DNA of 64,000 nt, from the NCBI GenBank assembly GCA_031414535.1, contig JANNVQ010000014.1, positions 293,961-357,960 of the forward strand, read 5' to 3'. The notes below the pieces were generated by a model. The model did no database searches and was not told where the DNA came from. It saw nothing but the letters and a program-made list of their open reading frames with translations. Source of the stretch: Gemmatimonas sp. GTDB lineage: Bacteria; Gemmatimonadota; Gemmatimonadetes; Gemmatimonadales; Gemmatimonadaceae. Every line of letters starts with the position of its first letter. Position 1 is the first letter of the stretch. Made by a program: the position numbers and the translations under genes. This document shows positions 9,155-33,700 of this stretch, piece after piece.

Positions 9155-9424
9155 CCCGGGAAACGACGGGATCCGAGCCCGCGACCCCCTGAACCCCATT
9201 AACGGGTCAGCTCGTGGCACCCTGGCACAGTGTTGAGTTTCGCCCGCCCTCGAGATGCAATGCAAATCATTGCACCGACACCAGTTAGCTGGCGTTTTAA
9301 GCTGCTCCAACATCGGTGAAGCACAGTTCTCGGAATTCTTGGGAGACATCGGAAACAAGCGCATTTCCAGTCGGCTGGCACATTCCAGGCACAGTGCGAA
9401 CGCGATCCGCGCCGGCATCATCGA

Positions 9425-10852
9425 TCAGCGCAGCTTCTTGGAGCGGCTGCAAACGACTAAACGCTTGGCGCCGCGAGTCATTGCGACGTAAAGGTGTTCC
9501 GGCCCCAGAGGATCCGCGTCAAGCACAATCGAGATGTCAGCTTCAAGCCCCTTCAGCAGCAAGGTGCTACCGACCGCTCGACCCGGGAGGGCACGCAAAC
9601 CGAAGCGGGACTCCTCGCGGATCCGTCTCGCAACTTCCCCATAGGATCGTAGTGGTGACTCAGCGCATGTGCGGGCCATCTGCAGGCAAGAGTTCAGCAA
9701 GACCGGGCGGAATACGTGCGAGCCAGACTGCGACTGGAGCGCCGCGAGAAGGAGCGCAATCCGTCCAGGCGCTGCGTCTGCAAGCAGGCTCAGGGCGGCG
9801 CTCTCCACCTCCGAGGTCGGCTTACGTGAGCGACCGTTGACGATAGACTCAATGCGAGCGGCCAGGTCCGCCGGCCGTACCGCAGTCATTACGCTCGCCG
9901 CGAGCGAGGCTGTGAGCTCCAGTATCTCTGTCCCACTTTCCACCTCATCGAGGGACTCGGCGAACTCGATAAACTCACGAAGCTCGACCGTCTCGACTGC
10001 GACTGCCCCTCTGGTCTGGCGTGCAAAATCGTGCTGCAATGCCTTGTTCTTGCTATCGACGAGGATAAGTGCGGTACCGCCGCCACCAGGCAAGCGCCGG
10101 TTCGCAGCACTCAACTGCACAGGAGTATCGTGTGAGGGATCACCCGTGAGGCCAACCCATTGGACCGCATCGGGCGCAGCCGAAAGCTCGATGCCTTCTC
10201 CCGCACTCAGTGGGGATCGAATTCCCAAGAGCCACTCGCCAAGCTCTTGCGCACCGCTGTTCTTCCATCGCCACGGGACGTCCAGCTGAGCTACCATCGG
10301 AAAGTCTCTGAGCACAACATCTCGCCAGCTGGGAAGACGGTTGCCTCCAAATCCGAAAATCGCCTGAAGCGGATCGCCCAGCACAACCGTGGGTAGCGCT
10401 TCAGACAGTCCACGTACCAGTTGGTGCTGGAGCTGGTTGCAGTCCTGGTATTCATCGACCCAGGCCCTGACATAAGTCTTGCGAAGCAGCTCTTCGATCC
10501 CACCTTCAATAATCAGCCTCACCGCAGCGCGTCTTATATCAGGATAGTCATCCCTTGGACTCCGAAGCTCCAGGGCAGCCCGGCGCACACCGGACCTCTC
10601 CGGGAACATCGACACCATCCGAAGCGCCCAGCCATCAAGAGTGAACACCCTGAACGCCTTGGGGTCGACTTTGGACAGCGATAGGCGCCGGCGGAGAACT
10701 GCCACACCGGCGTTAGTGTGCGTGAGGATCAACACTGGTCGCCTATTGCGGATAGCGGCCATCGCATCGACGATCAACTGAGTCTTTCCACAGCCAGCCG
10801 GGGCCTCAACCGAGCCGCGGAGTGCCTCAATCAAGACGTCAGACTGCGGCAT
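9425..10852 (-). CDS. UvrD/Rep-like SF1 helicase (GajB-like)
   Basis: APAGCGKT, VDEYQDC, LGDPLQAIF, KGLEAD, YVAMTRG; overlaps the OLD gene end. Confidence 0.85.
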   Translation of the reverse strand: MPQSDVLIEALRGSVEAPAGCGKTQLIVDAMAAIRNRRPVLILTHTNAGVAVLRRRLSLSKVDPKAFRVFTLDGWALRMVSMFPERSGVRRAALELRSPRDDYPDIRRAAVRLIIEGGIEELLRKTYVRAWVDEYQDCNQLQHQLVRGLSEALPTVVLGDPLQAIFGFGGNRLPSWRDVVLRDFPMVAQLDVPWRWKNSGAQELGEWLLGIRSPLSAGEGIELSAAPDAVQWVGLTGDPSHDTPVQLSAANRRLPGGGGTALILVDSKNKALQHDFARQTRGAVAVETVELREFIEFAESLDEVESGTEILELTASLAASVMTAVRPADLAARIESIVNGRSRKPTSEVESAALSLLADAAPGRIALLLAALQSQSGSHVFRPVLLNSCLQMARTCAESPLRSYGEVARRIREESRFGLRALPGRAVGSTLLLKGLEADISIVLDADPLGPEHLYVAMTRGAKRLVVCSRSKKLR

Positions 10853-12551
10853 CCCGCGCCCACGCCCGAAGCGCTTCGATGACTAAAGCGATGTTCAAGG
10901 CGGACCCGGTCAGTGCTGGACCTAGAATCTCACGGGCCGGAGTCTCCATTTGACTAATCGATTTGAACCAGCCGCTGCCAGCCTTCGCAGCTAGCCCGAG
11001 AACCTTGCGAGCGTCATCAGTGATTGATGCGCGGCAATCGGTGAGGCCAAGAACCCCGTTACTCTTGGACTTGATGTGCGAGTCGATAGCGGCCTCAGAT
11101 TGTAACTCAACCGCGCACTCCAGCAACTGTCTGACTGCCTCCTCTGGGAGCGCAGAGAATAGCGCCTGCTCCGTCGAATGGCCTTCGCTCCACTTGAATA
11201 AATGTCCTCCTGCTTCCACGAAGGCATCCTCGCCCGGGGGCGCAAGCGCGACGTCTGAGTCGCGAAGGATTGCCACCTTGAATCCAAGAGCCTGCAGCGC
11301 TTGAGCCCGACCTCCCACTCGCGAATGGCCATTGCTGTCGATGAAGACAACGCCCACCGAAGCGAGAGTGGGCCTCGCCTGGCTGTCCTCGAACTGATCA
11401 AGACCGCGGAGCAGGCCAACCTCTGTGGAGCCCTCACATACCACAACGGCACGCGCCAATAGGGCCTCTGGGAAGGTGCGCACTGTTCCCTGAATCTCAT
11501 CTGCAGTCCCGACAGGCACACAAAGGTGCGCCTCCTCCGTTGGCCTCCTTAGAATCCACAATGCGTCGCCTGAGAGTTCTCTAATCACGACGGGTGAATG
11601 CGTGGTGAGGAACACCTGAGCCGAGGGCTGTGCCGACTTCGCTCCGAGTGTGTCCAGCAGTCGCGCCACGCGATACGGCTCCAGCCCATGCTCGACCTCA
11701 TCGGCAATGATCATGCACGTGCCGCCCCCCAAGGTCTGCTGCATGCCGGCCGTCAGGAGCCGAACAGAGCCCGTGCCGAGACATTGCAGCGGAATGCCTT
11801 TGCTGGTGTGAAGCGCAATCGTGCCCCTTCCGAGCGATATGGAGTCAGCATCGAGCATCGCTTTCAGGCCGTCCCCGATTTTTAGGCCGAGAAGCACCCC
11901 CTTGGCGGCTATCGCATCGAGGGTGTCCTGTAGATCGGGCGCCGTCTTCTCACCGAATGCCTTCCGCGCTTCACGGGCTGCGGTAGCGAGCGCATTGGAC
12001 GCATTCGGAACATCAGACGTCAGCCGGCTAAGCACGGAACCCTGCCGCCAAGCGAACTGCGAGCTGCTGCTGACTCCGATTCGGATCGGTCCGAGCTTGG
12101 TTCGAATGCCCCAGGGAATTCCCCTTTGCAGTCCCAACTCTCGGGAACGATCGGAATAGAGCGTCCACGTTGGGTCTAGCGATTCGTCGACAACCAGCTG
12201 CAGCGTCACCACGGTCTCCAATCCGACCCCAGCCTCGTCTGCAACCTCCCCCGACTCAGCATCAAATCCTCTGAGGTATTGGCCGTAGGTGTCAATGTCG
12301 AGTAGCTCGTCCGGAAGTTCGCCAATAGTTGCAGCGATCCGGATCGGCTTGCTGTGGTCTAGCTCGAAGAAATCGGCGTCGGAGAAAGCGATCGCTCGCC
12401 GCGCTCCGAGGCACAGGTCTATCGCGTCAAGCACCGTGGACTTCCCCACGTCGCCGGGGCCTAGCAGGCAGTTGAGGCCAGGCTTCGGGTTCCAGTCGAG
12501 GGATCTCATGCCGCGAAAGTTCTCGATCTCCAGCCGTCTGATGCGTGTCAT
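10839..12551 (-). CDS. OLD-family ATP-dependent endonuclease (ABC ATPase + TOPRIM; GajA-like)
   Basis: IENFRG, GPGDVGKST, DEVEHGLEP, TTHSP, VCEGSTE, DSD. Confidence 0.85.
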   Translation of the reverse strand: MTRIRRLEIENFRGMRSLDWNPKPGLNCLLGPGDVGKSTVLDAIDLCLGARRAIAFSDADFFELDHSKPIRIAATIGELPDELLDIDTYGQYLRGFDAESGEVADEAGVGLETVVTLQLVVDESLDPTWTLYSDRSRELGLQRGIPWGIRTKLGPIRIGVSSSSQFAWRQGSVLSRLTSDVPNASNALATAAREARKAFGEKTAPDLQDTLDAIAAKGVLLGLKIGDGLKAMLDADSISLGRGTIALHTSKGIPLQCLGTGSVRLLTAGMQQTLGGGTCMIIADEVEHGLEPYRVARLLDTLGAKSAQPSAQVFLTTHSPVVIRELSGDALWILRRPTEEAHLCVPVGTADEIQGTVRTFPEALLARAVVVCEGSTEVGLLRGLDQFEDSQARPTLASVGVVFIDSNGHSRVGGRAQALQALGFKVAILRDSDVALAPPGEDAFVEAGGHLFKWSEGHSTEQALFSALPEEAVRQLLECAVELQSEAAIDSHIKSKSNGVLGLTDCRASITDDARKVLGLAAKAGSGWFKSISQMETPAREILGPALTGSALNIALVIEALRAWARDAAV

Positions 12552-12692: not shown

Positions 12693-13472
12693 CTAGAATC
12701 GAAAGTGCCGTCGTATTGGCGGGAGGAATCGTAGCGAAGCGGCTTGATTCATCGGCCTCTTTGGCCCGACGAGCAGGGGAGGCTCCTCGTAGTGCCCAAC
12801 GAAGGCCCTGAAGTTGTCGATGAGCGATTCAAATCCGTTTCGCCCGGTCTCCGCGAACGTGCGCACAAACTGGGGCCTTGAGACGGGCTGCACATAGGCC
12901 CTGTCCGCGCTGCTATGGGGAAAGACCCACCACAGGTGCCCACCATCCCCGAAATCGAAGAACACGTGAGCGCTGCTACCGAGCCAGTCTCGGAAGAGGG
13001 CACCCGCGGGCCTGAGTATCTGTCGTTTGTTGAAGTTGGGGATGTAAGAGGTGCCGCGGGCCCATTCCTTCGCAAACCTCGCAAGATCACGTTTCCGCCG
13101 CGCTCCATCCACGACCCAGACTAGTCCCTCATAGAACTGCTCCCGTGCACGACGCTCGTCGGGGTCTATGTGGGAATGCTGGAACTCCAGAACCCATCCA
13201 TCCGCCGTCTTCACGTCTGCAATGTGCAACTCGCCGCTCAGGGCTCGGTGGACGACCTCCTGCCAGTCCGGCGGGAAGTGATTCTTCCACGCCCGGTGCC
13301 ACTCGGTCTCGTTCTCCGACCAGGGGTCGCAGGTTCGAGTGCCGGCGTGGGCCCAGTGCCACGTCTTGATCTCCCCGCACTTGGCGATGACAGGCTTGCC
13401 GCAGCCTGGACACTCGGCTACGAGTTTGGGCAGCGCCTCGAGCCGCTGCCCCCCATGCAATGCAAATCTCAT
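12693..13472 (-). CDS. CoiA-like zinc-finger/PD-(D/E)XK nuclease
   Basis: CPGC..KCG..WHWAH, ETEWH..WK, HIADV, LEFQHS. Confidence 0.8.
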   Translation of the reverse strand: MRFALHGGQRLEALPKLVAECPGCGKPVIAKCGEIKTWHWAHAGTRTCDPWSENETEWHRAWKNHFPPDWQEVVHRALSGELHIADVKTADGWVLEFQHSHIDPDERRAREQFYEGLVWVVDGARRKRDLARFAKEWARGTSYIPNFNKRQILRPAGALFRDWLGSSAHVFFDFGDGGHLWWVFPHSSADRAYVQPVSRPQFVRTFAETGRNGFESLIDNFRAFVGHYEEPPLLVGPKRPMNQAASLRFLPPIRRHFRF

Positions 13473-13528: not shown

Positions 13529-13550
13529 ATTCTAGCGCCGGGAACCGACA
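13529..13550 (-). promoter_or_regulatory. PafBC-type promoter 1 (coiA-like/OLD/UvrD)
   Basis: Minus strand TGTCGG-TTCCCGGCGC-TAGAAT, an exact TGTCGG-N10-TANNNT match. Confidence 0.75.
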
Positions 13551-13575
13551 GCGAGGGCCGCCTTCTGTGAACCGA

Positions 13576-13610
13576 GCCGCCAGATCCGAGCGGATCTGGC
13601 GGCCCTTTTT
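13576..13610 (+). terminator. Intrinsic terminator hairpin
   Basis: GCCGCCAGATCCG-AG-CGGATCTGGCGGC followed by CCTTTTT. Confidence 0.7.
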
Positions 13611-14074
13611 GCGTTTCCCTCTTCTGGAATTGGCTCATTCTGGGCGAAGTAGGCTTCCGACCGCACCGCTCGGCTATTCGAGCTGGCGGCCTCACGGAGC
13701 GTAGAGGCCAGTCGATTCGGCCAATCCCACCGCAATCCCACTCGGAATCTTCTTCCAATGCCCCACGCATTAACTCGCCGCGAGGTGAGGGACTCGCGCC
13801 GGAGAGTGGGTATGCGAATTCCGGAATCGTGCCGTTTGCGGGACCAGCTACGTATCCCAGGGCTCTCCATCTCGACTCGAGTTCAGAAGCCCCCGTATCC
13901 GCTCACGAAGACGAGCTCCTGTCCTCAGACACTGGCAAGGCCCCTTACCCACCGCATCCCTCCGCAACAACGGAGTGCCCCGGCGACGAATAGCCGCCAA
14001 AGAAGGAGGCTTAATGCGAGCGGGGCGTGCTACGCACTCCCCGCCCCATCACTGCTCAAACGTCGGCAACCCCG

Positions 14075-17011
14075 TTAGCCACCCGACGTTGTGACATCGT
14101 CCGAAAGTCCGACGTCTCGGAGACCGCTCCGTAGCTCATCAGCCGTGTGCTGGTCCGTAGCAGGCTCGAATGGCATCCGGAACTCAACGCGCACCGTGAG
14201 TCCCGGCTTCGACGCGATGCGGGTGAGCACCTTCATGTAGAACGTGGTCCACTTCTGTATCGGGACTTGACCGGTCCAGCCGAGGGCTCGAGATGTGAGT
14301 TGCAGTTCGCTGTGGCGCTTGACGTTGGGAGACTCGTTCACTGCCACCGACACTTCCGCTTGCGCGGTGATGTCACCCGCAGCCACACGCACGGCGAACC
14401 TCCCGGTCTCCGCTCCAACCACCAGCTGTCCGTCGGGCGAGATTTCGCCCGTGGTTGTCGACCATGAGAGTGCAGGCTTCGACAGCTCGTGTCCGTACTG
14501 ATCGAACGCGCCGATGGTAAACTTGGCCTGCTCACCGGGCTGCAGCACTACGCTGTCGGGGCGCAACGAAAGCAGTGCCAATCGCGGTGGCTCAAGGAGG
14601 CGCTGCGCATCAGCAGACTTCAGGATGAAACAGTCTTCTGCGATTTCGACCTCGTGTTCCGACAGGTCCTCGTTGAATCGAACGAGCACGAGTCGGCCTG
14701 ACGCATCGCGATGCGCATAGCCGAGCAGTCCCTGCGACACGCCAGCCGCTATGCTTCGTTTGACGACCTCGCCGCGAATGAGGCGCGGCAGCAACGGCGA
14801 CGAGAAGAATGCATCCCTGAGCGCTTTGGTGGACCATTCCGTGAACGCGGGTGGCCAGTACTTCAGCAACCGGTTTGCACCAACGGCGTCCGTCACTTCG
14901 TCGTCCTTAATCATTCGATTGAGGATCAGCTCCGAGTGACTTCCCGCCATACTCGACGTGATCTGACCGAGATCTATCTCGCGGATGATGTTGTCTTTGC
15001 CGAGTAGATACAGATAGCGGTAGGAGCGCCACACGGCCTCGCGCAGGTCCTTCTTGGCCCGCTTGAGACTCTCGGTTAGTTGTCGACGCTGAATCTCATC
15101 CAACCGACCCTTGCTCTCATCGTCGTCGTCAACGGCTTCCCATGCGAGCAGACTGCGCGTCGCCTCGACCGCCGTGTTGCCCGGCGCCGGCGCCACAAAG
15201 ATCAGGGCACTCTTGAACGAGCGCGCTGAAGCTCCGGATTCACGGACAATCGTCTCCATGAGCTGGCGAGTCATTGGTTCCCCGGCTGGCGTCTCAGGGC
15301 CCATGATAACCAGTGTCAGCTCCGGCCGGTCGGGAACGTCATTACTCTTCGCCGGCGAGAAGCGGCGTTCGAACGTCTGCTGCCCTTCCTTAAATAGCGC
15401 CTCCGTTTCATCTCGCAATCTTTTCGCAATCACGTCGGCCTTCACCTCGGCTCGGCGCGTGACAAGGATCTGGTTCAGGTTGGGACTGAGGCTGAACCGA
15501 TAGCGGTTCTTGTCGCCACTCAGGTAGAAAGACGACGCGATGAGCTGTTCGAGCACATGGTCGACATCGGCCAGGTTGGTATCGGGCTCACCGACCGCCG
15601 TCTTGATCTCCGCGACGCTGGCTTCCGCCCGTGACTGGGATTGACCACCATTGCTTTCGAAGAAAATCGCTGTCGCAGTCTTCAGATGAAGACGAGACTT
15701 CCTGATCGACTCCGTGGCTTCCTTGTCGAGTCGCGCCGCGTGCGAGTCGTTTCGGCCAGTGATGTCCGAGATGACGGGTACTTCGAGGCGATCAGAGCCG
15801 AGCTGCTCGAACACCGCTGCTCGAAACGTCGGATCGTCGAGCGGAGCGGACCCCAAGGTTATTAGCGGCTCCTTCGCTGCCTGTCGATGCTCCTCCTGAT
15901 ATGCTCGCGCGACCCAAAGGGCGAGCAATCGCAGCACTCCCCGGGTTCGTTGAAAGCGCGGCAATCCTTGCCACTTTCGTTCGAACACCGACAGCACGGA
16001 CGGGTGGAACGGGTACGCTGACAGAAACAGGTCGTAAGCGGACGCGGCGTCGATGCCTGCTAGCTCGCCATTGTGCGCCACGGCCCAGCCGGCGTACTCC
16101 GAGATGGTCTTCTTGGCGTCCACAGAACTCCCGTGCCACTCAAACAAACGACGGCGGATGATCTCGGCGAACTCGGTCTCGGCGCTCATCATGATCGCTT
16201 TTCCGACGCGGTCGAGCAGTTTCTTCAGGGATTCGTGGTCACGCTGATCCTCAGCGTTCATCTCTAGTTCCGATGCGGGGATCGAAACGCAGAGCACCAT
16301 GTTGTCGCGTGCTCGGGCTTCCTCGGAGAGATTCTGGAGAAAGTTGTAGAGCTGGTCTCCGAGCTTGAGTTTCCGCGCACGGCTCACGTAGTTTAGCAAC
16401 TCATCCATCAGGATCAGCACAGGCCCGGCGGGGAGCATCTTTCGAATCACGTCTCCCGCAGGCGCGATCCCATCCGCGTCATGCTTTGCGACGGTCTCGA
16501 ACGCCTTTTCGCCGCCGAGCTGCCAGGCGATCTCCCCCCAAGGAGTGCGACGCTGCGGCTCGCCCTTGCCGCCGCGACCGTCGATCACGTCGAACTCCGT
16601 TCCTACGAATACCGCAACCGCCGCCGTGGGAACCTGTGTCACACCAGCCCGAGAGAGGATGCCATCTACGCCCTTCCACTCGGCTGCCGCCTTGCCGCCG
16701 TTAGCGAGGTGATACAGCGCTGTGAGAGAGTGTGTCTTTCCACCGCCAAACTGCGTGGCCATGTTGAAGACGGCCGACGTCTCGACCTTTATACCGGAAA
16801 GCCGGCGCACGACCTGGCTCGATAAGTCGAGCAGGCTCTTCGTCAGGTAGGTACGGTCGAAAAAGCGCCCCGGTTCCAGATAGTCGGGATGGGCCCGGTG
16901 ATCGCGGATGTGGTCGAGATGTACCGCGAACTCGCTGGCATCGAGCGGGCGGTTGTCGCGCAAATCTTCGCGCGGAGTCACCACCTGGTACCACGGTTTC
17001 AGTTTGGCCAT
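14075..17011 (-). CDS. DUF499-family AAA+ ATPase with a C-terminal Ig-like domain
   Basis: KPWYQVVTPREDL, TQFGGGKTH, LMDEL, YPFHP, FQRTRGVLR. Confidence 0.85.
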   Translation of the reverse strand: MAKLKPWYQVVTPREDLRDNRPLDASEFAVHLDHIRDHRAHPDYLEPGRFFDRTYLTKSLLDLSSQVVRRLSGIKVETSAVFNMATQFGGGKTHSLTALYHLANGGKAAAEWKGVDGILSRAGVTQVPTAAVAVFVGTEFDVIDGRGGKGEPQRRTPWGEIAWQLGGEKAFETVAKHDADGIAPAGDVIRKMLPAGPVLILMDELLNYVSRARKLKLGDQLYNFLQNLSEEARARDNMVLCVSIPASELEMNAEDQRDHESLKKLLDRVGKAIMMSAETEFAEIIRRRLFEWHGSSVDAKKTISEYAGWAVAHNGELAGIDAASAYDLFLSAYPFHPSVLSVFERKWQGLPRFQRTRGVLRLLALWVARAYQEEHRQAAKEPLITLGSAPLDDPTFRAAVFEQLGSDRLEVPVISDITGRNDSHAARLDKEATESIRKSRLHLKTATAIFFESNGGQSQSRAEASVAEIKTAVGEPDTNLADVDHVLEQLIASSFYLSGDKNRYRFSLSPNLNQILVTRRAEVKADVIAKRLRDETEALFKEGQQTFERRFSPAKSNDVPDRPELTLVIMGPETPAGEPMTRQLMETIVRESGASARSFKSALIFVAPAPGNTAVEATRSLLAWEAVDDDDESKGRLDEIQRRQLTESLKRAKKDLREAVWRSYRYLYLLGKDNIIREIDLGQITSSMAGSHSELILNRMIKDDEVTDAVGANRLLKYWPPAFTEWSTKALRDAFFSSPLLPRLIRGEVVKRSIAAGVSQGLLGYAHRDASGRLVLVRFNEDLSEHEVEIAEDCFILKSADAQRLLEPPRLALLSLRPDSVVLQPGEQAKFTIGAFDQYGHELSKPALSWSTTTGEISPDGQLVVGAETGRFAVRVAAGDITAQAEVSVAVNESPNVKRHSELQLTSRALGWTGQVPIQKWTTFYMKVLTRIASKPGLTVRVEFRMPFEPATDQHTADELRSGLRDVGLSDDVTTSGG

Positions 17012-17035
17012 TTGTTATCCGTTCGAAGTCGTAGC

Positions 17036-19966
17036 TCAGAGATTGAAACTCTTACGGCGGGCGAGCAAACCGTCCACCCATCGCTTCTCATCAGTTCCCG
17101 GTGGATACAAGGCCGAAAGCGACTGCGCGACTCGCCAGAATCGAGTATCGGTGCCGGCCCCGTCCTCCGTAAGGAATCGCTTGAGTGCCTCTCCGCGACC
17201 CGCCGAGAACAGCAGCATGCACTGATGGACCTTATCCAAGGTCGTACCAGAAGAAGCATTGTGGCCCACTTCAGAACTGGTAGACGGTGCAGCCTTCGAC
17301 ATCTCAGCCTCGGAGAACAGCGTCCCCTGTGGTCCATTCGTCGACCGGCCTACCACACGGCGCTGCACTTCCGTCGAATCGGTGAACAGCCAACGGGCGC
17401 GCTCGGCGACCGACAAGAGCCGGGCGGTCTCGCCCTTGACCTCGACAAGTGTCCCGAGCTCCTCCAAGTGAGCCCCGAGTCCTTGAGCAATCTTTCTCGC
17501 GGCGTCGAATTCCAGAACGTAGCCGCGAACCGGACTCGACTTTGCGTCGCTTCCGTCGTCCTCATCCGCTGCGTCGTTCTCTGACTCCTCGGTGGCCGTA
17601 CTCGGCCGACCGGCTCCCACCGTCCAAAGCCACATGGCCGTCAAGCGCGCGTCCGGTTCGAGACCTGCAGAGTCGGCACCATCGAAGATGGTGGAGAGTG
17701 CCTCGTTCGCGACCGCTCCCCATACGTGTTCCAAGTATTCGGAAAGCGCCACAACGTCGCCATTGGACTTCTCAACGCGGCTGTATCGGCTGAAGACCTC
17801 CAGTGCCGGCCCGATACATGCGAAGATTGCATCTGCACCCACAATGCCTTCCTTGGCGAGCCGCGGCATCCATTCGTGAATGCGTCCGGGTAACGCTGAA
17901 ATCACGTCGCGCCAGTCACCGACCGAGTCAGTTTCCACTTGCCCGTCTGGGCGCTCTCGTGGGCGGCAAACAAGGAAGATGGACGACTGGAGTGACGCCG
18001 AAGCCTGAGCGCGCGTTCTATTCTGCATCTCTGTGTCGACCGGCCACGACGCAGTCACGACCCATCCGCCTTCGATCACGGCGCGGAGCATTGCCTCCCA
18101 CGCTGTGGTACTGCTGTCGGCAAACACGATACAAGCGATCCCGCTTGGCTTTGTGATCTCGCGCGCTTTCGCCAGCGCTTGTGTCATTCCCTGCGAGAAG
18201 AACTCTTCATCTTTTGGTTCACCCGAAGGACCTGTCGCTGAGTTGGTGACAATCAACTCGCGTTGCTTTGCGACGAGTTCATCTCGAAAGTACGCGGCGT
18301 CGCGTCCGCGAAGCCCACGCTTTAGCCAGACGTAGAACACATCCGACAGGTCAGCGTACGGAATCGCCGCAAAATACGGAGGATCCGTGCAAAAGACGTC
18401 GACTGAATCGGCAGGCAACGGGACAGTTTCGGCGCTCGCACATTCGACGCGACCGGCGTGGTCGAGTATGAGATTCGACTGCAAGACCTTCGCAACCCAC
18501 TGCACAGCCGCCGGCCAACTCGCCATGACGTCATGGGTCGGATTGGATTCAGCAAAGTCCCACAGTATCTGAAGGGCTTGCTTGGAAAAGAGCCCTTCGA
18601 TCTTACTTCCAGTGTTGTTCCAGCGCGAAAGCGACGTGTTCTGCATTACAAGTCGGTCAAGCGCCAAGTGCAGAAGAGTCTCGACCGCGTCGTCCAATGC
18701 CTTGTCGGCTGCGCTCTTCTGGTCCAGAGATGAGTGAATTGCGTCCTGGAAGGCGACGATTGCCACCGCCTGACGAGCCGTGTAGAGGTCCAAGAAGCGG
18801 CGCATGCCAAACCGCGTCACGCCACTGATGCCCCTTGTATTCGCATAGGGACGAGTCGGATTGATAGGCTCCGTGGGAAACACACCCGGTCGGCGCTTCT
18901 GCATATCCGCGTAGGCAGCGGTAGCGGCAGCGACAGCGGCCACATCATTCCTGTTTGGAGCGCGAAACGAACGGGCTCCGTTGTGCTCGACCAAGACCGC
19001 ATATAGGCGCGCCGTGTTCGCTCCTCCGAACACGGCCGTCATCTGCTCCTTTACACGCTTCGCCGACGTCGTGTAGCCGCAGCGCACGCAGGTAGCCTTT
19101 CCACCACTCACGGTGGCTGTAGTTCGCTTTTCAATGCCGCTGACTAGCTCGGTGAGGACCTTGCGCCCAGAGGCGGATACCAGCACGTGCGCGACGGGCG
19201 ACTTTCGCGAGAGCTGGGTAGCGCGCAGCAACGGCAGTTCCACACCGCATCCTGGGCCCTCGCACTGGATAGTACGCGCCCAGAGGTAGGCGATGGGAAC
19301 CGCCTTGTTGGCGTCACGTGGATAGAGCGGCGCGAGCGTCCGTTGCGCCTCCTCAAGCACCGCGTTCGCACGTTCGCGAAGGCGATCGATCAAACGTTGA
19401 CCGAAAGCGGGCAGGTACTCCAGAATCACCTTGTTAAGGAGAACAGGCACCGGGTTAAGGTCGGACGCAAACGCGTCCGCGCCTATCCGCACTGCTTCCA
19501 GAGGTATTGCTCCGCCACCAGCAAAAGGATCAACGACGAGCGGACGAGTCCCCCTCTCGCCCCCGAGTGCTTCGTGGGCCGCGTTCACAAGAGCACGGGC
19601 AGTCTCCAAGAAAATTCGTTCGTCAGCGTGATCCCAGTTTGCGAACTCAGCGATAAAGTCGAGCAGCCCGAGTCGCAGCGCCATCGGATTCCGCCAGTCG
19701 CGTTCCTCTCCGCCTCGCTCATCGCGGAACTTCTTGAGCCATGTTCCGCAAGAATTGACAAAGGACGCTGGACATTCCGGGTCTGCAGGGTCCGGCAAGA
19801 GGGCGCCAAGCAACGCGGCTCGCGCGGACGCAAGCGGACGCCGGGCCCACCAGATGTGGAGCGTCGAGATATGTCCGTGACGTAGAGTCTTCTCTCGGCG
19901 CGATTGATTCGACACCTCTGCAATCGGCAGGTCAACTTCGATGAGGCGCTTAGGGTAGTTGTGCAT
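17036..19966 (-). CDS. DUF1156 zinc-ribbon adenine DNA methyltransferase
   Basis: KRLIEVDLP, LHIWWARRPL, DPFAGGGAIP, CxxxxC..CxxCG, TDPPYF; start at MHNY. Confidence 0.9.
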   Translation of the reverse strand: MHNYPKRLIEVDLPIAEVSNQSRREKTLRHGHISTLHIWWARRPLASARAALLGALLPDPADPECPASFVNSCGTWLKKFRDERGGEERDWRNPMALRLGLLDFIAEFANWDHADERIFLETARALVNAAHEALGGERGTRPLVVDPFAGGGAIPLEAVRIGADAFASDLNPVPVLLNKVILEYLPAFGQRLIDRLRERANAVLEEAQRTLAPLYPRDANKAVPIAYLWARTIQCEGPGCGVELPLLRATQLSRKSPVAHVLVSASGRKVLTELVSGIEKRTTATVSGGKATCVRCGYTTSAKRVKEQMTAVFGGANTARLYAVLVEHNGARSFRAPNRNDVAAVAAATAAYADMQKRRPGVFPTEPINPTRPYANTRGISGVTRFGMRRFLDLYTARQAVAIVAFQDAIHSSLDQKSAADKALDDAVETLLHLALDRLVMQNTSLSRWNNTGSKIEGLFSKQALQILWDFAESNPTHDVMASWPAAVQWVAKVLQSNLILDHAGRVECASAETVPLPADSVDVFCTDPPYFAAIPYADLSDVFYVWLKRGLRGRDAAYFRDELVAKQRELIVTNSATGPSGEPKDEEFFSQGMTQALAKAREITKPSGIACIVFADSSTTAWEAMLRAVIEGGWVVTASWPVDTEMQNRTRAQASASLQSSIFLVCRPRERPDGQVETDSVGDWRDVISALPGRIHEWMPRLAKEGIVGADAIFACIGPALEVFSRYSRVEKSNGDVVALSEYLEHVWGAVANEALSTIFDGADSAGLEPDARLTAMWLWTVGAGRPSTATEESENDAADEDDGSDAKSSPVRGYVLEFDAARKIAQGLGAHLEELGTLVEVKGETARLLSVAERARWLFTDSTEVQRRVVGRSTNGPQGTLFSEAEMSKAAPSTSSEVGHNASSGTTLDKVHQCMLLFSAGRGEALKRFLTEDGAGTDTRFWRVAQSLSALYPPGTDEKRWVDGLLARRKSFNL

Positions 19967-19976
19967 TCGCTCTCGA

Positions 19977-22900
19977 CTAAGCCGGGACTGCGGCTGCGGT
20001 GAGTTGCGACATCGCGAGCCGATAGTGTTCGACGACGACAACCGCCTGCCAGCCAAGGGTCGCGGGGTTGTTGATCAGACGAAGGTCAGGCTTCGAACTG
20101 CAGTTGAACACGACATAGAGCCAATAGTCGCCGCCGAGCCGCTCAGCCGTCCGGTGTTCGTTCGAGGTTAGCGCGACATCGCCGACAGCGGAGCGTCCCT
20201 TCACCTCGATGAAACGCACTTCAGTGAAAGTCTTGACGTCTTCCGGGTGCGGCTTTCGCGAAATCAGATCGAAGCCACGATTCTCGCTCTCGACGCTCTC
20301 GACCACCCAACCGCGAGCGCGTTCGTACGCCATCGCCGTGTCGACCGCGATCCGTTCGACCTCCTCATCGCGAACCATGGGCGCGTACTGTGGCTCCGCC
20401 CGCTCCGGGTGAGGCAACACCCACGCGCGCCCAAGATGCGTAAGATCGCTCACAGTACAGTGCCGCTCCATGTCCAAGTCCTTGCGGCGCGCATCGAGGC
20501 GGTTGTTGAGCGTATCCAGGTGCGTCTCAGCCTGAGCGATAATGCCATCAAGGCCCGGGGTGGTGCGACCGTCCTCCTGACGACTCAGAAACTCCGCGAG
20601 CTGGAGTTGCTGTCGGTCGATGAGCGCCTGAAGACTGATTTCGACGTGTTGCGCGATTCGGTCAACCTCCTGAGAGCGCTGGGTAGCGGTCTCCGCAAGC
20701 CAAGGCGCGAGGCTCTGCGAGTACAAGTGCTCTTCGGAGACTTGGCGTGCCGGCAGCGGCAGGTCCGGCGCAAGCGTCCCCTTAGGCGCTGGGTTTACGT
20801 CGTGAAAGACTGTCGGCTGCCTGATCGTTACCGTGCCGTTCGGAGCTGTCTCAACCACGAACAGTCTCCGGTGCAAGGTGTTGCCGCGCCCGTCCTTGAT
20901 GGAAGCCGCAAAGACGTCCCACAGCGCCGACTCCTTTCGGTGCAAATCAAAGAACACCGTACCGCGGTTGAGATCGTCTGCCGTGCGCTCGGCAATTTCC
21001 GTACGAACTGCCTCGAAGAGCGGATGGCCCGGAGTGACCCATTCGAGCGTTGGGTCTGCTTCCAGCAACTGCTTATCGAAGACGACCTTGCCGAACTCTC
21101 TTCCCAGTCGCCCGTATCGCGGCTCTTGCCGATCACCGATGGCGACGAGCAGGCGCGGAATCTTGCCGATACGGTAGATGTGCGTACTCGGCCCTGTGGG
21201 ATTTGGCGAAAGCCCTGCTTCGGCAGCTGATGCGGTGAAGAAATCTTCGATCACCTCGGGGACGAGGCGACGTTCCTTCGCTTCAACCGCGCGATTGATA
21301 AGCGACGAGAGATTCAGATTACGCCGTGCAAGACCTTCAAGGGCGCTTTCGGTAATTGCTCTGAAACGCTCGGGGTCGACGTCGTGCACAATCCGATCCT
21401 GCACCTGATTCACGTCGAGTTGACGGAGGTACATCTCGCGGAACAGTCGCTCGATAGTTGATGCCGGAAGCACTTCTCCAACGACGTCAAAGACCTGGTC
21501 GGTTCCGAGCTCGTTCCGGATCTCTTTGAGACGATCAAGCAACTTCTGCAGCACGCGTCCTTCGCGCGTGTTCTGCGCAACGAAATTGAAGACGAGGCAA
21601 TCGTGCTCCTGTCCGTAACGATGGATGCGTCCGACTCGCTGTTCGAGGCGCATCGGATTCCAAGGGATGTCGTAGTTCACCATGAACCAACAGAACTGCA
21701 GATTGATTCCTTCCCCCGCCGCTTCCGTGGCGACGAGCACCTGACAGCTTTCTCGGAACTCCCGCTCCGCGTAGATACGGGAACCGGGCGTGTCGCGGTC
21801 TCCGATCTTCATTCCGCCGTGGATCTGTGTGACGGATAGTCCCATGTCGCGGAGACGCCCTACAAGGAAGTCGAGCGAATCTTTGTGCTCCGTGAAAATG
21901 AGCACTTTCATGGTTGGGTCTGAGAACACCCCCTCTTCGGACAGGAGCGTCTTGAGTCGCGTGAGCTTGCTTTCAACCTCGCGTTTCTCGAGGGCGCACG
22001 CTTGGATGATGAGCTTTTCGAGATTGGCGATCTCTTCGCGGAGCGACGTAGGGTCTACTGACGCAACCACGTCCTCGAGTTTCGCGAGAATCTCCTGCTT
22101 TTCTTCGTCTTCGAGTTCGTCAAAGTCATCAGGCACTTGCCGATCGATTTGCGCTTTGCGGTACGCTTCCGGATCCTCAAGTATCAGACTCCGCTTGTCT
22201 TTCATGCGCTCAAGCGTTCGACGCACCGCGTAGACTGTCGACGCCATGCGGCGCTGCAGCATCGCCATGGTGAATCCGACGGCTCGGCCGCGTGTTGCAT
22301 CCTCGCTCGATGCACGAATGCTCTGGTCCTCGACGTAGTGCGTCAACGAGTCGTAGAAATCGAGCTCGTCCCCGTCGAGGTCGAACGCGGCGGTACGCAC
22401 CTCGCGTTTTGTGAATAGCTTGCGCACTTCCCCCGTCTCCGGATCGGGGAAAGTGACTAGCGCTTCCTTGGTACGCCTCAGGTAGAACGGTGCAACGTTC
22501 TTACGCATGGCCTCCTTCAGACTCGCCACGTCGCCGTAGACGTCCTTGTCAAGCAACGCGAGGAAGAGACAGAAGTTCTCCGGGTCTCCTTTATGAGGCG
22601 TTGCTGTCATGAGGAGATAGTGATCGGTCATCGTCGACAGCGACTCGCCCAGACGGTATGCAAGCGTCTTCCGGTCGTCGGCGTACGCCGCCATCTTGTG
22701 CGCCTCATCGACGATCACCAGGTCCCACCGGGATCTGAGCAAGCTTTCGCGCGCATCTTCTATCCGCGACACCCAGGATACCGACGTGATCGCCTGATCT
22801 ACGTCTTGCCACGGATTCTGGCCGTAATTGGCGCGAAGCACATCGCTCCTGATGACGCTAAAATCCTCCCGAAACTTGTCCTTCATTTCGCGCTGCCACT

Positions 22901-23384
22901 GGAACGTCAGGTTGGCCGGTGTGACGATCAGTACCCGCTTCACCAAGCCACGCGCCTTGAGTTCCTTGAGCAGCAAACCGGCCATCACCGTCTTGCCGGC
23001 GCCTGGATCGTCGGCCAGAAGGAAGCGGATTCGCGGGAGTGGTAGGAAGTAGTCGTACACTGCCTCCAGTTGGTGAGGCAGCGGATCTACCCTTGCGATG
23101 GAAAGCGAGAAATAGGGGTCGTATTCGTAGGCGAGGCCAAGTCGAACGGCCTCGACTCCGAGGCGAAACTTCCGCGCATCACCGTCGAACGGATCGCGGT
23201 CGGCCGAGACCGTGAGTTGCGCCAGCTGAGCCATTGTGAGGATCGGATCGCGCGTCAGACCCGTTTCCAGTCCGCGTCCAATCACTTTCACGGCCTGCCC
23301 CATCGGCTGAACCGCAAGCACTTCGATCGGCTCAGGAAGCGTGGGTCCGCGGACGATCATCCCGGGCCGGAGGGGTTCTCTCAT
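19977..23384 (-). CDS. SNF2-family helicase with C-terminal DUF3883 nuclease-like domain
   Basis: LADDPGAGKT, DEAH, MTATPH, WNPMRLEQRVGRIHRYGQ, GFDLIS...IEVKGR. Confidence 0.9.
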   Translation of the reverse strand: MREPLRPGMIVRGPTLPEPIEVLAVQPMGQAVKVIGRGLETGLTRDPILTMAQLAQLTVSADRDPFDGDARKFRLGVEAVRLGLAYEYDPYFSLSIARVDPLPHQLEAVYDYFLPLPRIRFLLADDPGAGKTVMAGLLLKELKARGLVKRVLIVTPANLTFQWQREMKDKFREDFSVIRSDVLRANYGQNPWQDVDQAITSVSWVSRIEDARESLLRSRWDLVIVDEAHKMAAYADDRKTLAYRLGESLSTMTDHYLLMTATPHKGDPENFCLFLALLDKDVYGDVASLKEAMRKNVAPFYLRRTKEALVTFPDPETGEVRKLFTKREVRTAAFDLDGDELDFYDSLTHYVEDQSIRASSEDATRGRAVGFTMAMLQRRMASTVYAVRRTLERMKDKRSLILEDPEAYRKAQIDRQVPDDFDELEDEEKQEILAKLEDVVASVDPTSLREEIANLEKLIIQACALEKREVESKLTRLKTLLSEEGVFSDPTMKVLIFTEHKDSLDFLVGRLRDMGLSVTQIHGGMKIGDRDTPGSRIYAEREFRESCQVLVATEAAGEGINLQFCWFMVNYDIPWNPMRLEQRVGRIHRYGQEHDCLVFNFVAQNTREGRVLQKLLDRLKEIRNELGTDQVFDVVGEVLPASTIERLFREMYLRQLDVNQVQDRIVHDVDPERFRAITESALEGLARRNLNLSSLINRAVEAKERRLVPEVIEDFFTASAAEAGLSPNPTGPSTHIYRIGKIPRLLVAIGDRQEPRYGRLGREFGKVVFDKQLLEADPTLEWVTPGHPLFEAVRTEIAERTADDLNRGTVFFDLHRKESALWDVFAASIKDGRGNTLHRRLFVVETAPNGTVTIRQPTVFHDVNPAPKGTLAPDLPLPARQVSEEHLYSQSLAPWLAETATQRSQEVDRIAQHVEISLQALIDRQQLQLAEFLSRQEDGRTTPGLDGIIAQAETHLDTLNNRLDARRKDLDMERHCTVSDLTHLGRAWVLPHPERAEPQYAPMVRDEEVERIAVDTAMAYERARGWVVESVESENRGFDLISRKPHPEDVKTFTEVRFIEVKGRSAVGDVALTSNEHRTAERLGGDYWLYVVFNCSSKPDLRLINNPATLGWQAVVVVEHYRLAMSQLTAAAVPA

Positions 23385-23615
23385 TCGCTGCGGGTTTCCT
23401 GATGTGGCCCGGCGCGGCGGAAGAATGCCGGGCACGGGCGCATGGATTGAGCAAAGCGTCGTGTTATCGGAAGGAAAACTACCCGCCGGGTCTGGGGCTG
23501 ACGAGTAGTCGTCTGCGGTGATCGCGGCGATGCACGATCCGCACTGCCCTCCCGCCGCTCATCGCAGCCGCTTGACCGCAGCATCGAACGTGGAACTGAT
23601 GTGGTATCGGACACG

Positions 23616-23637
23616 AAGGTACGTTCGCCCTCCGACA
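23616..23637 (-). promoter_or_regulatory. PafBC-type promoter 2 (SNF2-DUF1156-DUF499 operon)
   Basis: Minus strand (T)TGTCGG-AGGGCGAACG-TACCTT, about 230 nt upstream of the SNF2 ATG. Confidence 0.7.
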
Positions 23638-23813
23638 ATCGAGCCGGTAAGTCGTCCAATCTTCATTCCGAGCCAGCTGCTGAGCCGGATTCGCGATCAA
23701 GCTGGCATCGGCTCGTCTCTCTGGCACACTACTGGCACACAAGACAACAATGCGACGCGGTCGCAAGCCACGCGACTGCATTGCAAATTGTTTAACAACA
23801 ATCACTTACAGCA

Positions 23814-23853
23814 TCAGGACGGCGGGATTCGAACCCGCGACCCTCTGAGCCCT
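23814..23853 (-). mobile_element. att-site remnant: 3' half of a tRNA (probably tRNA-Pro)
   Basis: Minus strand GGGCTCAG-AGGGTC-GCGGG-TTCGAAT-CCCGC-CGTCCTG-A gives anticodon 3' strand, T-arm and acceptor strand; the 5' half is absent. Confidence 0.75.
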
Positions 23854-24166
23854 ATGAAGGTTCCCGAGAATCCGCGAGAAATCCGACGCATCCACAAACT
23901 CAATTCGCGCAAGCACTTACGTTGGGCATGACAGCTGTGCGTGTAGCTGCGCCACCGGCCGCAACCTGGAGTTCGCACACGAATGGCACTCTAAATCACA
24001 GATTGTACATATATCGCAAACGGCGTGGCACCCGATGGGACGAGGGCTAACCCACGTGCAGCAGGTTAATCTTAGCGTCCCCGCGAGAAATCCTCGACAA
24101 TCAGCGACCCCGCAGAGCCTTCGATCCGCTCAAAGCAAGCACCGTCTTATTGATTGGACCCGAAGT

Positions 24167-26844: not shown

Positions 26845-28515
26845 CTAGGTCGGGATGCCTTTGCGCGTCGGGTCTCGCATCCACCGGCCAATGCTACCAA
26901 TGAACTCCCAGACGTCACCGTCACCCGGAGTGACGTATCCAGCAGCACTTGGGTCTGACCCGAGAGCCGTCAGCATCTTCTCAAGCCACTGATTCCCGTG
27001 TGATGCCACGTTCAGGTGCTTAAGCCAGCTCTCCGCTTCTCCGAACGGAACTACGAATATGCCGTAGTCAGCAAGTCCAGCAAGAAGCGTCTTCAACTCA
27101 ACTTCTCTGTCGCCGGTAAGAAGTGAGATGCCACCCTTCTTCATATCAAGTGCTCCAGCATCGAAGCTCGCAACTACGTTCCCGCGCAAAGCTTGCCAGG
27201 CTTGCACTAGGGCGCTTGGTACGGAACAGTCGTTTAGGAGGGTCTTGAACTCTTCCTTGACTTTGATGATGTCAAGATCCACGACAACCGCGGCCGGGAT
27301 GCCAAGCTGGCGCAGTGGTTTGGCAAGGCGACCCAGAACACTCTTCGAGTGAGCGTTAGTGAACAGTGCATCGACAGCCGCGTCCTTTCGCGCAACCAGT
27401 AGTCTATGATTGATCTCCTGGTAGAAGGCGCGGTCCGAGTCGGCCTCGCAGACCACGGCTCCGCGATGGAATAGCGCACTGAGCAATCCCGTCGACCGCA
27501 AGAGTGGATCGCGCATAAGGGTTGCAAGATCGTTGCTCGGTAGCCGTCGTGCAGTTGCGGCGTCCGACTCGTATGTCAGGCGCACGACCTGCACGTCCTT
27601 TCCTGACTCGACTGCACCCATCAGGAAGTCTGCCGAGTGCGTAGCCGCAATGACGTGAGCCGACCGCGCAGAGCCGACGTCAGCGAGAGTGCGCCCGAGC
27701 ATGCGCGCCAAAGGGGGGTGCAGAAATGCCTCTGGTTCGTCAACAAGCATCACCCTGAAATCGCTGCTATGAACTGCTAGCACGAGGCCGGTGAAAGCCC
27801 GAACTCCGTCACTGAGTTCTTGAATAAGGGGCGCGGCCGCGTGGAAGTTGCGCGAGCGTTCGTCTAGCGCCTGTTCCTCAACTTCATCCGTCGGAAGTCG
27901 AGAGGACATGCGCACACGCAGCTGCGTCATTCCCGTAGGGTCAACGACGAAGTACCGCCCGAATGCATCAAAGGTGATGCTCCGAATGACTTCACGCGCG
28001 GCCCTGTCTCGAAACAGCGACGCCAGTACGTTGGTGGGCGGAGACTGCATGTCAACAGCCGGCCGCGGATTGACCAGAGTCAGGCGAGTATGTCCATCGA
28101 GTCTAAGCACGAAGAGGCTGAGTATCTGACTCCGCACCCAGTCTGGATTGTTTCCTTTCGTGAGGAATCCGACCGCTTCCGCTTCAGTCATCTCGAACGC
28201 ACGCACTTCGTCAGAGACGGGTGAAACAGAACTCAGGACAATGTGCCCTTCCCGCGCCTGAGCTGTCCGGGTCGCATTGAGCCGGGCATTGACAAGCTCC
28301 CTCGCCTCGCTTTCTGGGATCACCTTGACATCTATCGAGTCAAGAATCTTCCGACCCTGTGGATCTTTGCCGGCAACGACCGCCTCTAGCTCGCGAAGGA
28401 CTAGGCTCTTGCCAGAATTATTTGGTCCAACAAAAACGGTCAGGTGACCCGGCGGAAAACTCAGAGGCTTCGATCCGTTACTCGATCCAGACCTCAAGTT
28501 GATTGACTCAATCAC
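26845..28515 (-). CDS. AAA_21-type ATPase with TOPRIM-like C-terminus (OLD-like nuclease)
   Basis: GPNNSGKS, LSDG, VDEPEAFLHP, ATHS, VCEADSD, VVDLD. Confidence 0.8.
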   Translation of the reverse strand: MIESINLRSGSSNGSKPLSFPPGHLTVFVGPNNSGKSLVLRELEAVVAGKDPQGRKILDSIDVKVIPESEARELVNARLNATRTAQAREGHIVLSSVSPVSDEVRAFEMTEAEAVGFLTKGNNPDWVRSQILSLFVLRLDGHTRLTLVNPRPAVDMQSPPTNVLASLFRDRAAREVIRSITFDAFGRYFVVDPTGMTQLRVRMSSRLPTDEVEEQALDERSRNFHAAAPLIQELSDGVRAFTGLVLAVHSSDFRVMLVDEPEAFLHPPLARMLGRTLADVGSARSAHVIAATHSADFLMGAVESGKDVQVVRLTYESDAATARRLPSNDLATLMRDPLLRSTGLLSALFHRGAVVCEADSDRAFYQEINHRLLVARKDAAVDALFTNAHSKSVLGRLAKPLRQLGIPAAVVVDLDIIKVKEEFKTLLNDCSVPSALVQAWQALRGNVVASFDAGALDMKKGGISLLTGDREVELKTLLAGLADYGIFVVPFGEAESWLKHLNVASHGNQWLEKMLTALGSDPSAAGYVTPGDGDVWEFIGSIGRWMRDPTRKGIPT

Positions 28516-28651: not shown

Positions 28652-29989
28652 TCAGCTAGTACGCGGCTGGCGCCCCAACATCTCCCCCACCGACCCCCTC
28701 CCCCGCCCTCTCAAATCACTCTCCCCCCGCCCACTCTTCACCCGCGCAACATACACCTCCTTCATCACCCGCCCATCCATCCGCCCCGACACTTGGCCGT
28801 ACAACAACTCCAACTCCCGCAACAGCCCACTCACCCCCTCCAACCCACGCGCATACCGCTTCATCAGCGTCATCTCCTTCCGCAGCTCCCGCCGCGCCTC
28901 CTCAAACCGCCCCGCCCGGTTCAACTGCAGCGCCTCCCGAATCGCCACACCCTGCCAGGCCGCAAGCGCCGCCACACTCCGCTCCATCTCCCGCTCCTGC
29001 GCGCCGTTCGCCGATTCCTCCGCAAACGTCAGCGTCGCCACCTGAGCCTCGGCCTCAATCACCGCCGACCCATCCGGCAGCTGAGCACTCAAAGCCGCAG
29101 CAATCTCAAAGGCCTGCCCTGCGACCCCGGAATGGCAGAACACACGAATCACGACACGCTTCACCTGCTCCGGCCGCAGACTCCCCACCAGCACCTCCAA
29201 CCGCCGCCCACGCGCCGTCGCACCCCAAGGCCCCACCACCTCGGCGCGCTCAATCTCCGCCGGCAATGCAATGCAAAGCACCGCACGCTCCACCAGCGAC
29301 TCTCTCCCTTCGAGCAGCTCGCCGAGCACCACCTCGTGGATCTCGCTCGCATCCGTAGCATCGTGCAGACGTCCGCCACCAGCCTCAGTCATCGCGGCGA
29401 GCAGGGCTTCGTCATAGTCATCACCAATGCCAACCGCCGAGGTGATGATGCCCCCGCGCTGCGCATCCGCCGTGAACCGCGCGAGCGTCGGCGCATCGGC
29501 GATCCCGATGTTGGCGAGCCCATCCGTGAGCAGCAACACGCGGTGCGACGCACGCGCATCGGCTTCCATCGCCGCAGCCACGCGGCCGGCGGCGAGATCC
29601 CATCCACCAAAGAGATTGGTCGAGCCCTTGGTCTCGAGCCGCGCAATCGCAGTCTTCGCCGCGCGACGACCCGCGGCATCCATCTTCTTCGCTTCAAGCA
29701 GCAGTTCCACATCATCACTGAACGCGATGATGCTGAGGCGATCCTTCGAGGTCAGTGCATCAACCACTTGAGCCGCCGTCGCGCGCGCGGCCTCGAGCTT
29801 CTCACCACCCATCGAACCCGACACATCCACCGCCAACGCGAGATTGAGCGACACACGCTCGGCGGCCTGAAGGACCGTGCCGTTCGCCGAGATGTCGGCG
29901 ACGAGATATCGGACGGACTCGCCGGCTTCCCATACGAGGGCGCGGTCGGGTCCGAAGGTGAGGCTGAGTTGGGGACGCTGGGCAATCAT
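28652..29989 (-). CDS. vWA domain protein (MIDAS)
   Basis: DVSGSM, GSTNL, LLTDGLAN; AGGAG RBS before MIAQ. Confidence 0.9.
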   Translation of the reverse strand: MIAQRPQLSLTFGPDRALVWEAGESVRYLVADISANGTVLQAAERVSLNLALAVDVSGSMGGEKLEAARATAAQVVDALTSKDRLSIIAFSDDVELLLEAKKMDAAGRRAAKTAIARLETKGSTNLFGGWDLAAGRVAAAMEADARASHRVLLLTDGLANIGIADAPTLARFTADAQRGGIITSAVGIGDDYDEALLAAMTEAGGGRLHDATDASEIHEVVLGELLEGRESLVERAVLCIALPAEIERAEVVGPWGATARGRRLEVLVGSLRPEQVKRVVIRVFCHSGVAGQAFEIAAALSAQLPDGSAVIEAEAQVATLTFAEESANGAQEREMERSVAALAAWQGVAIREALQLNRAGRFEEARRELRKEMTLMKRYARGLEGVSGLLRELELLYGQVSGRMDGRVMKEVYVARVKSGRGESDLRGRGRGSVGEMLGRQPRTS

Positions 29990-30029
29990 CGGAGCTCCTG
30001 GGTAGGGCCCGGGATTTGGGCCTAGCCAG

Positions 30030-30051
30030 AAGATCGGGGTGGGGTCTGACA
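30030..30051 (-). promoter_or_regulatory. PafBC-type promoter 3 (vWA)
   Basis: TGTCAG-ACCCCACCCC-GATCTT. Confidence 0.65.
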
Positions 30052-33611: not shown

Positions 33612-33638
33612 ATCGTCTCCTCGGGTGGCGATACCTGA

Positions 33639-33660: not shown

Positions 33661-33700
33661 CTCCCATCGACTCATCCCCGGGTTCGAGTTCGGGGACCGA

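Follow-up and report, generated by a model that had tools for sequence, protein, structure and literature searches.

Candidate PafBC-dependent promoters before the Hma and CoiA-Gabija operons of a Gemmatimonas island

The window analysed here, a 64,000-nucleotide (64-kb) stretch of a Gemmatimonas sp. genome, carries an Hma defence operon, a CoiA-like gene followed by a Gabija system and an adjacent pair of WYL-domain regulator genes, pafB and pafC. Both defence operons are preceded on the minus strand by a site resembling a PafBC promoter, TGTCGG-N10-TAGAAT at 13529-13550 and TGTCGG-N10-TACCTT at 23616-23637, as found in a pattern scan of the whole window. We consider it probable that both sites are PafBC-dependent promoters, through which pafBC, acting in trans, would induce the Hma operon along with the CoiA-like gene and, probably, Gabija in response to single-stranded DNA (ssDNA). 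The assignment of the sites to PafBC is well supported by comparison, namely by the sole WYL pair of the genome, its location in trans and the recurrence of the motif at a fixed spacing; activation, damage induction and read-through to gajAB are what we infer from mycobacterial PafBC.

Two PafBC-type sites and their probable regulator pair

According to passages of PMC8635444, PMC11804915 and PMC6789036, PafBC promoters of Mycobacterium smegmatis and Arthrobacter aurescens, which work by sigma adaptation, read tGTCgg(N10)tA(N3)T. The sites at 13529 and 23616 have this form, including the exact spacer, and at neither was a -35 hexamer found (0-1 of 6 matches to TTGACA at spacers of 16-18). The ATG of the coiA-like gene (13472) lies 56 nt downstream of the first site and the likely ATG of hmaA (23387) 228 nt downstream of the second. 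Contigs from run X1, possibly the origin of the same DNA, span both sites with zero differences. A sequence-only reading of this DNA had named the two as perfect matches to TGTCGG-N10-TANNNT, and both are indeed present; the window holds three, against 0.21 expected from shuffles, and the one that was missed (33012-33033, plus strand; score 9.2 under the matrix described below) has no gene within 260 nt downstream and is probably a chance match.

Sites were ranked with a lineage matrix trained on 31 sites upstream of pafB in other Gemmatimonadota, in which the core columns are fixed by the pattern that selected them. Among 3240 gene-upstream regions, the 13529 site (18.1) ranks sixth and the 23616 site (15.7) ninth, which makes them fifth and sixth within the window; that they are the best-matching sites, as had been proposed, holds by the mycobacterial consensus only. 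Above them stand the sites before a YbjN-like gene (33639-33660, minus; 24.3, the best of the genome), a vWA-domain gene (30030-30051, minus; 20.2), an HD-domain gene, where the motif is divergently oriented (36759-36780, minus; 19.2), and pafB itself, where TGTCAC-N10-CATCTT (36809-36830, plus; 18.4) is followed by the ATG 6 nt downstream, the geometry of a leaderless transcript. A lower-scoring divergent site precedes an open reading frame (ORF) of 73 amino acids (33701-33722, plus; 12.6). The island holds 6 of the genome's 11 top sites and, between 9163 and 43600, 8 spacer-10 sites with a score of at least 11, whereas other spacers give 0-2; its toxin-antitoxin genes carry no motif. Of the other top sites, one precedes an MmeI-type restriction gene and another a DUF2779 gene, both elsewhere in the genome.

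The MmeI-type restriction-methylase occupies two ORFs on contig C14 (244551-247871), after the near-match TGTCTG-N10-TATTTT (16.7), and the DUF2779 gene follows the second-best site of the genome (23.9) in a second toxin-antitoxin-rich island (C49, 49540-52579); the 380-amino-acid gene above it begins with an LLTVWNP motif, as do ORFs near pafBC in L135, L235 and L382. In the window, vWA, YbjN-like and PEGA genes (28652-30051, 33075-33952 and 34032-34555) have the motif, as they do in the relatives L123, L235, L382, L329, L408 and L332, and ADP-ribosylglycohydrolase and ARPP-1 genes are repeated motif targets too.

The only WYL-domain genes of the genome, which is 98% complete, are pafB (36837-37911, plus; winged helix-turn-helix (wHTH)-WYL-WCX) and pafC (37908-38924, plus; HTH_PafC-WYL-WCX), both assigned from profile domains and structural relatives; the closest solved structures of the pair are those of PafBC (6sj9, 9fnd, 7p5x). 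The pair lies 13 kb outside the attachment-bounded Hma-Gabija block, so any control would be exerted in trans. Of the positive trans control by PafBC that the sequence-only reading had put forward, the location in trans stands and the motif recurs across the phylum; its positive and damage-inducible character would follow from the mycobacterial precedent. We rejected the possibility that pafB is a pseudogene, as reads of X1 and X2 show, at full depth, two additional bases at 37545 and the frame is intact; the two-base gap near this position is an assembly error. Helix 3 of PafB keeps the RMFERDK sequence when aligned to 7p5x, with arginines R46 and R50, and R.FERD is present in 51 of 51 rows; passages of PMC8635444 describe the two helix-3 arginines of PafB as reading the guanines of the GTC triplet. 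The WYL arginine pairs (PafB R211/R214, PafC R201/R204), which parts of PMC11804915 describe as needed for ssDNA binding, are kept as well, as FRLDR in PafC and, for PafB, as FRVSR in relatives and in the window once the two bases of the reads are counted in.

The relatives of this PafB are Gemmatimonadota. A quick tree built from 51 PafB rows places 24 Gemmatimonadota rows, including two unclassified records grouped with them by hand, on one side of a branch with a support of 99 (SH-like approximate likelihood ratio test, SH-aLRT), and the PafB of the window lies beside those of Gemmatimonadaceae. Within the family, pafB was found in 73 of 200 genomes; viral contigs yielded no relative of pafB.

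Recurrence of the motif in Gemmatimonadota

Of 77 distinct pafB starts, 31 have the motif within 200 nt when the spacer is 10; with spacers of 7-9 and 11-13 the count falls to 0-2. At 13 of these 31 sites the start codon (ATG or GTG) follows the last T by 5-7 nt, the layout to be expected if a genuine -10 element gives rise to a leaderless transcript. Across 29 Gemmatimonadota pafB neighbourhoods (444 kb) we found 19 sites against 1-3 per control spacer. In this phylum the consensus shifts to TGTCA(G/C)-a/tCCC, and the first -10 position is T or C. An early hint of this departure from the mycobacterial consensus comes from the window's genome, across which the TGTCAG form, not TGTCGG, is enriched at spacer 10 (9 against 0-3).

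Homologues of hmaA carry the motif as well. Seven of 19, taken from 18 other genomes and 38-76% identical, have a spacer-10 site (score of at least 10 within 450 nt); six other spacers together gave 3 of 114, and among all genes the share is 1.3%. In G153 and L270 the site heads an operon in which hmaA is the second gene, which adds operon-level cases. In 4 of 11 pafB-bearing genomes, pafB and hmaA share a contig and lie within 25 kb of each other. The closest hmaA homologue (75%; G244, locus L297), from a genome in which no pafB was found, is preceded by TGTCAC and a C run with no -10 element at spacer 10, possibly a decayed site. CoiA homologues were too few for comparison (1 of 130 genomes, and two viral contigs without the motif). 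Genomes G125, G442 and G483 enter only as non-matching genomes in the denominators.

We counted a narrow pattern in two sets of 25 genomes picked for contiguity, one pafB-bearing and one pafB-negative. The pafB-bearing set holds 54 sites, against 20 in the pafB-negative set and 80 in total, or about 20 each, at four wrong spacers in the pafB-bearing set. Defence genes follow 13 of the 53 sites examined; nine of these calls are by PADLOC or HmaA match (HsdM, a Sau3AI-like nuclease, Cas3g, Cas5c, Cas4-Cas1, a SIR2 candidate, a DrmD-like helicase and two hmaA) and four by Pfam only (McrB-like, HNH, ResIII-HNH and AAA_21). The cas5 site was counted although flagged as inside a called gene; it lies 47 nt before cas5. 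Repair or recombination genes follow 5 sites (AddB-like, RecC, RecQ, RmuC and YraN), pafB follows 3 and other or unknown genes 17, and 15 sites are inside genes or geneless. By comparison, 24 of the 80 control sites have a downstream gene, none of them a defence gene and one encoding a single-stranded DNA-binding protein (Pfam scan only), and 0 of the 10 sites examined among the 20 of the pafB-negative genomes precede a defence gene.

We considered recA as a target and rejected it, since a site was found in 1 of 30 genomes and that one lies 6 nt before yraN. In the window's genome the relaxed match at recA scores 7.1, those at ruvB, recG, mutS and recQ score under 4, and AddB-like and RmuC genes were not found. 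The regions upstream of its recA (C32) and lexA (C37) contain a TTGACA promoter and TGTTCGG half-sites, which suggests that both are under an ordinary LexA box; the genome carries three LexA-like genes. The regulon of the phylum appears to be an accessory one, composed of end-resection and recombination genes where present (AddB-like, RecC, RecQ, RmuC) and of island-borne defence, with recA outside it.

Defence operons and their attachment ends

Behind the 13529 site, on the minus strand, lie the coiA-like gene (12693-13472; CoiA_N domain, Pfam PF25164, E 4e-9), gajA, encoding an OLD-family ATPase-TOPRIM protein (10839-12551; PADLOC GajA, E 5.6e-207), and the UvrD-like gajB (9425-10852; PADLOC GajB, E 5.5e-161). 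Behind the 23616 site, on the same strand, lie hmaA, for a SNF2 helicase with a C-terminal NOV_C nuclease-type domain by Pfam (19977-23387; PADLOC HmaA, E 1.1e-186; start set at the ATG at 23387 in a frame open from 23435), hmaB for a DUF1156 adenine methylase (17036-20056, start uncertain; PADLOC HmaB, E 1.7e-113) and hmaC for a DUF499 ATPase (14075-17011; PADLOC HmaC, E 9e-121). The order hmaA-hmaB-hmaC is complete and gajA is followed by gajB, in agreement with the PADLOC models. The proposal that the two sites head defence clusters is borne out for the CoiA_N gene with Gabija and for HmaABC as systems; control of gajA from the 13529 site, including co-transcription of coiA and gajA, is presumed from the arrangement, in which gajA begins 141 nt below coiA with no promoter motif of its own and the gap showed neither a consensus promoter nor a terminator. 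At 13576-13603, ahead of the 13529 promoter by 26 nt, a 12-bp hairpin with a T run on the plus strand only may serve to insulate one operon from the other. Neither leader, hma or coiA, shows unusual structure, and no Rfam family was found at 9000-44000.

Other defence-like genes of the window have no motif, namely a second OLD-like ATPase-TOPRIM gene without a UvrD partner (26845-28515) and HEC-09 (NYN) and PDC-S01 candidates (39015-40996). An ARAGORN call of tRNA-Ser at 5850-5933, on the opposite strand within sufD, is probably false.

Hma and Gabija together form a 14.7-kb block between two same-strand 3' fragments of tRNA-Pro(GGG), with a TGTGCCA repeat at each. The right attachment-like end (23721-23855, minus) consists of one fragment (23814-23855) followed by a TGTGCCA direct repeat of the integrase arm-site type, and the left end (9163-9229, minus) of the second fragment with a TGTGCCA-GTGCCA repeat. 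Part of the right end is the 23616 promoter, in a segment common to the window and genome G024; in G024 an intact tRNA-Pro precedes this segment, and type I restriction genes and an integrase come after it. G024 retains the promoter at 21 of 22 bases while the flanks diverge. At the metagenome locus L270, a tRNA-Pro end with the same arm repeat is joined to a different site, TGTCAC-N10-TAGTTT, before a small gene and hmaA. These loci, though only three in number, suggest that the promoter may be built into the attachment end. A search of relatives with the 281-nt attachment segment returned almost solely tRNA 3' ends, and scans for the arm repeat turned up 26 and 22 stretches; most were integrase arms with no relation to this end, and L270 was the sole matching tRNA-Pro end, with the motif present. 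An extra GTGCCA repeat beyond the tRNA-Pro fragment (23970-24031) suggests tandem island insertions there, and the intact tRNA-Pro(GGG) of the window's genome lies on C40.

Proposed mechanism, alternatives and known systems

In the mechanism that we propose, ssDNA arising from DNA damage or phage replication would bind the WYL domains of PafBC, PafB would read the GTC of the -26 element and PafC would engage sigma region 4. Housekeeping RNA polymerase would then start about 6 nt below TANNNT, near 13522 and 23609, and the levels of Hma, the CoiA-like protein and probably Gabija would rise.

Several observations weigh against this mechanism. PafB W70 is not kept; the position of PafC D62, in a register that rests on pairwise alignments, is Q in 36, S in 12, T in 7 and E in 6 of 69 rows; and the sigma-70 paralogues keep R442 and have Y at R416 and E or D at S446, by a numbering that uses an end-anchored, gap-free offset to M. 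smegmatis SigA. The changed PafC-sigma contact face could reflect a reciprocal swap or else a misregister. The three sigma-70-type factors detected in the genome (C54, 12261-13130; C58, 8416; C34, 163-1047) are each about 290 amino acids long, and no long RpoD was found. The motif at hmaA also does not track the presence of pafB (4 of 12 rows with pafB, 3 of 7 without), and five genomes in which no WYL domain was found (G400, G227, G186, G024 and G003; completeness 71-97%; four are fragmented, and the fifth, at 93% and in 3 contigs, has a weak site of 10.6) have sites before hmaA, hsdM or other genes. A loose pattern gives a small genome-wide excess in pafB-bearing genomes (ratio to the reversed control 0.74 against 0.65), from counts that are mostly chance, and nominal p-values are overstated for related genomes with several sites each. 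The diverged sigma region 4 and PafC contact residue and these orphan sites would suit a real Gemmatimonadota promoter type that is read without PafBC, by a short sigma-70 paralogue or another activator, and merely clusters in pafBC islands. We regard this as improbable: the pafB-negative genomes are at chance level, their 20 sites in 25 genomes equalling one control spacer and none of the 10 examined preceding a defence gene, the motif is the exact PafBC consensus including the spacer, PafB keeps its reading residues, and orphan sites are expected because islands move.

The sites could also be PafBC promoters that act as a mere top-up, with Hma and Gabija expressed mainly from constitutive starts or with Gabija unreached from the coiA promoter. 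Passages of PMC12392091 offer a precedent, in that transcription of restriction-modification (RM) genes depends on the WYL activator DdaA and its motif both in the normal state and upon induction, and further points lean the same way. The hma leader is long and, weighing also against our mechanism, a sigma-70-like site upstream (24031-24002), itself at chance level, could feed hma, co-transcription of coiA with gajA over the 141-nt gap is presumed, and the motif gives a mixed outcome at homologous operons, the check that the sequence-only reading had proposed: it does occur at hmaA and is present at 0 of 3 gajA homologues (31-36% identical). The absence of a -35 element at either site and of a detectable promoter or terminator between coiA and gajA speaks against it, as does a terminator-like hairpin (23751-23765) that separates the site at 24031 from the PafBC-type site, and we hold it to be unlikely, though worth keeping in mind. 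That the two matches are chance occurrences or dead relics in horizontally acquired DNA we consider very improbable. It is true that the TGTCGG form is not enriched genome-wide (6 at spacer 10, 4-9 at spacers 6-15) and that the third perfect match is geneless. Both sites nonetheless rank ninth or better among 3240 upstream regions by a matrix trained independently of them, the 23616 site persists in G024 with one change between diverged flanks, and hmaA homologues carry the motif independently. It is scarcely credible to us that PafBC acts at these sites as a repressor that damage releases, in the manner of CapW or, reportedly, BrxR, since the site is non-palindromic and overlaps no -35 promoter that could be blocked. 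The first-described defence-linked WYL proteins do repress, according to passages of PMC11662680, and the bipartite form is that of PafBC-activated promoters as described in parts of PMC8635444.

If PafBC controls these operons as we propose, sigma adaptation would operate outside Actinomycetota with an altered polymerase interface, and a second independent lineage would couple DNA-damage sensing to innate and adaptive anti-phage systems via a trans-acting WYL activator. It would also provide a promoter rule for the timing of Hma and Gabija expression, for neither of which a regulator was found in print, and hint at how newly acquired defence cargo falls under host control. A bolder extension, which we put forward tentatively and as rather doubtful, is that Gemmatimonadota PafBC is an island-wide immune alarm and not a repair master switch. 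Here ssDNA would turn on any defence cargo behind the -26/-10 promoter, the attachment-end promoter of tRNA-Pro-targeting elements would plug incoming systems (Hma in the window and L270, type I restriction in G024) into damage control, like the integron Pc, and the PafC-sigma interface would have altered in step with a short sigma-70 that has Y416 and an acidic residue at 446.

The sequence-only reading had presented damage-inducible positive control as a different logic of immune regulation, and in this it was not the first. DdaA and CapW have already established the general principle of damage-inducible immunity through a WYL protein, so that the surprise here is limited: passages of PMC12392091 describe DdaA of Moraxellaceae as a WYL activator of RM and CRISPR-Cas in trans after DNA damage, whose knockout or motif mutation abolishes phage protection, and passages of PMC11662680 describe damage-inducible immunity by CapW, which senses ssDNA and is released from DNA. 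PafBC itself is reported to regulate phage resistance in mycobacteria (Rafique et al. 2025, as cited in PMC12848934). We found no report of a Gemmatimonadota PafBC regulon or of PafBC-type control of Hma or Gabija in a literature search with subscription journals mostly outside it, though WYL proteins of Gemmatimonadota could appear in the phylum tables of PMC6789036. New here is the defence-centred tally of targets; the system would be a variant of mycobacterial-type sigma adaptation, in Gemmatimonadota and with a defence-rich, recA-free regulon.

With actinobacterial PafBC the system shares the adjacent pafB-pafC pair, the wHTH-WYL-WCX architecture, the RMFERDK helix, the WYL arginine pair and a bipartite promoter with a 10-nt spacer and no -35 element, and the regulon of relatives includes AddB/RecC-type resection genes much as adnAB is PafBC-dependent in mycobacteria (passages of PMC8682763). 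It departs from it in its host and in its neighbours, which are island genes and not a Pup-proteasome locus, in forming its own, patchy and island-linked PafB branch with a shifted consensus, in not keeping W70, D62 and two sigma contact residues, and in a regulon that has many defence targets, the motif before pafB itself and, outside it, recA, which actinobacterial PafBC controls. The defence systems fit the PADLOC models of Hma (passages of PMC11232893) and Gabija in gene content and order, with a CoiA_N gene preceding gajA unlike in known Gabija. As in the published passages on CapW, WYL-based ssDNA sensing would raise immune gene expression after damage; CapW and BrxR, however, are cis-encoded homodimeric repressors of one system and not regulon activators. 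The closest parallel in trans action is DdaA, a trans-acting WYL regulator that likewise joins DNA-damage genes with RM and CRISPR-Cas. As far as the passages on it go, DdaA works as one protein on the palindromic site CGWCA-N5-TGWCG, has replaced the SOS response and controls recA, and its other defence targets are called rare, whereas the window encodes a gene pair with a non-palindromic site, a predicted heterodimer that coexists with three LexA-like genes and whose candidate targets include Hma, Gabija, SIR2 and McrB-like systems.

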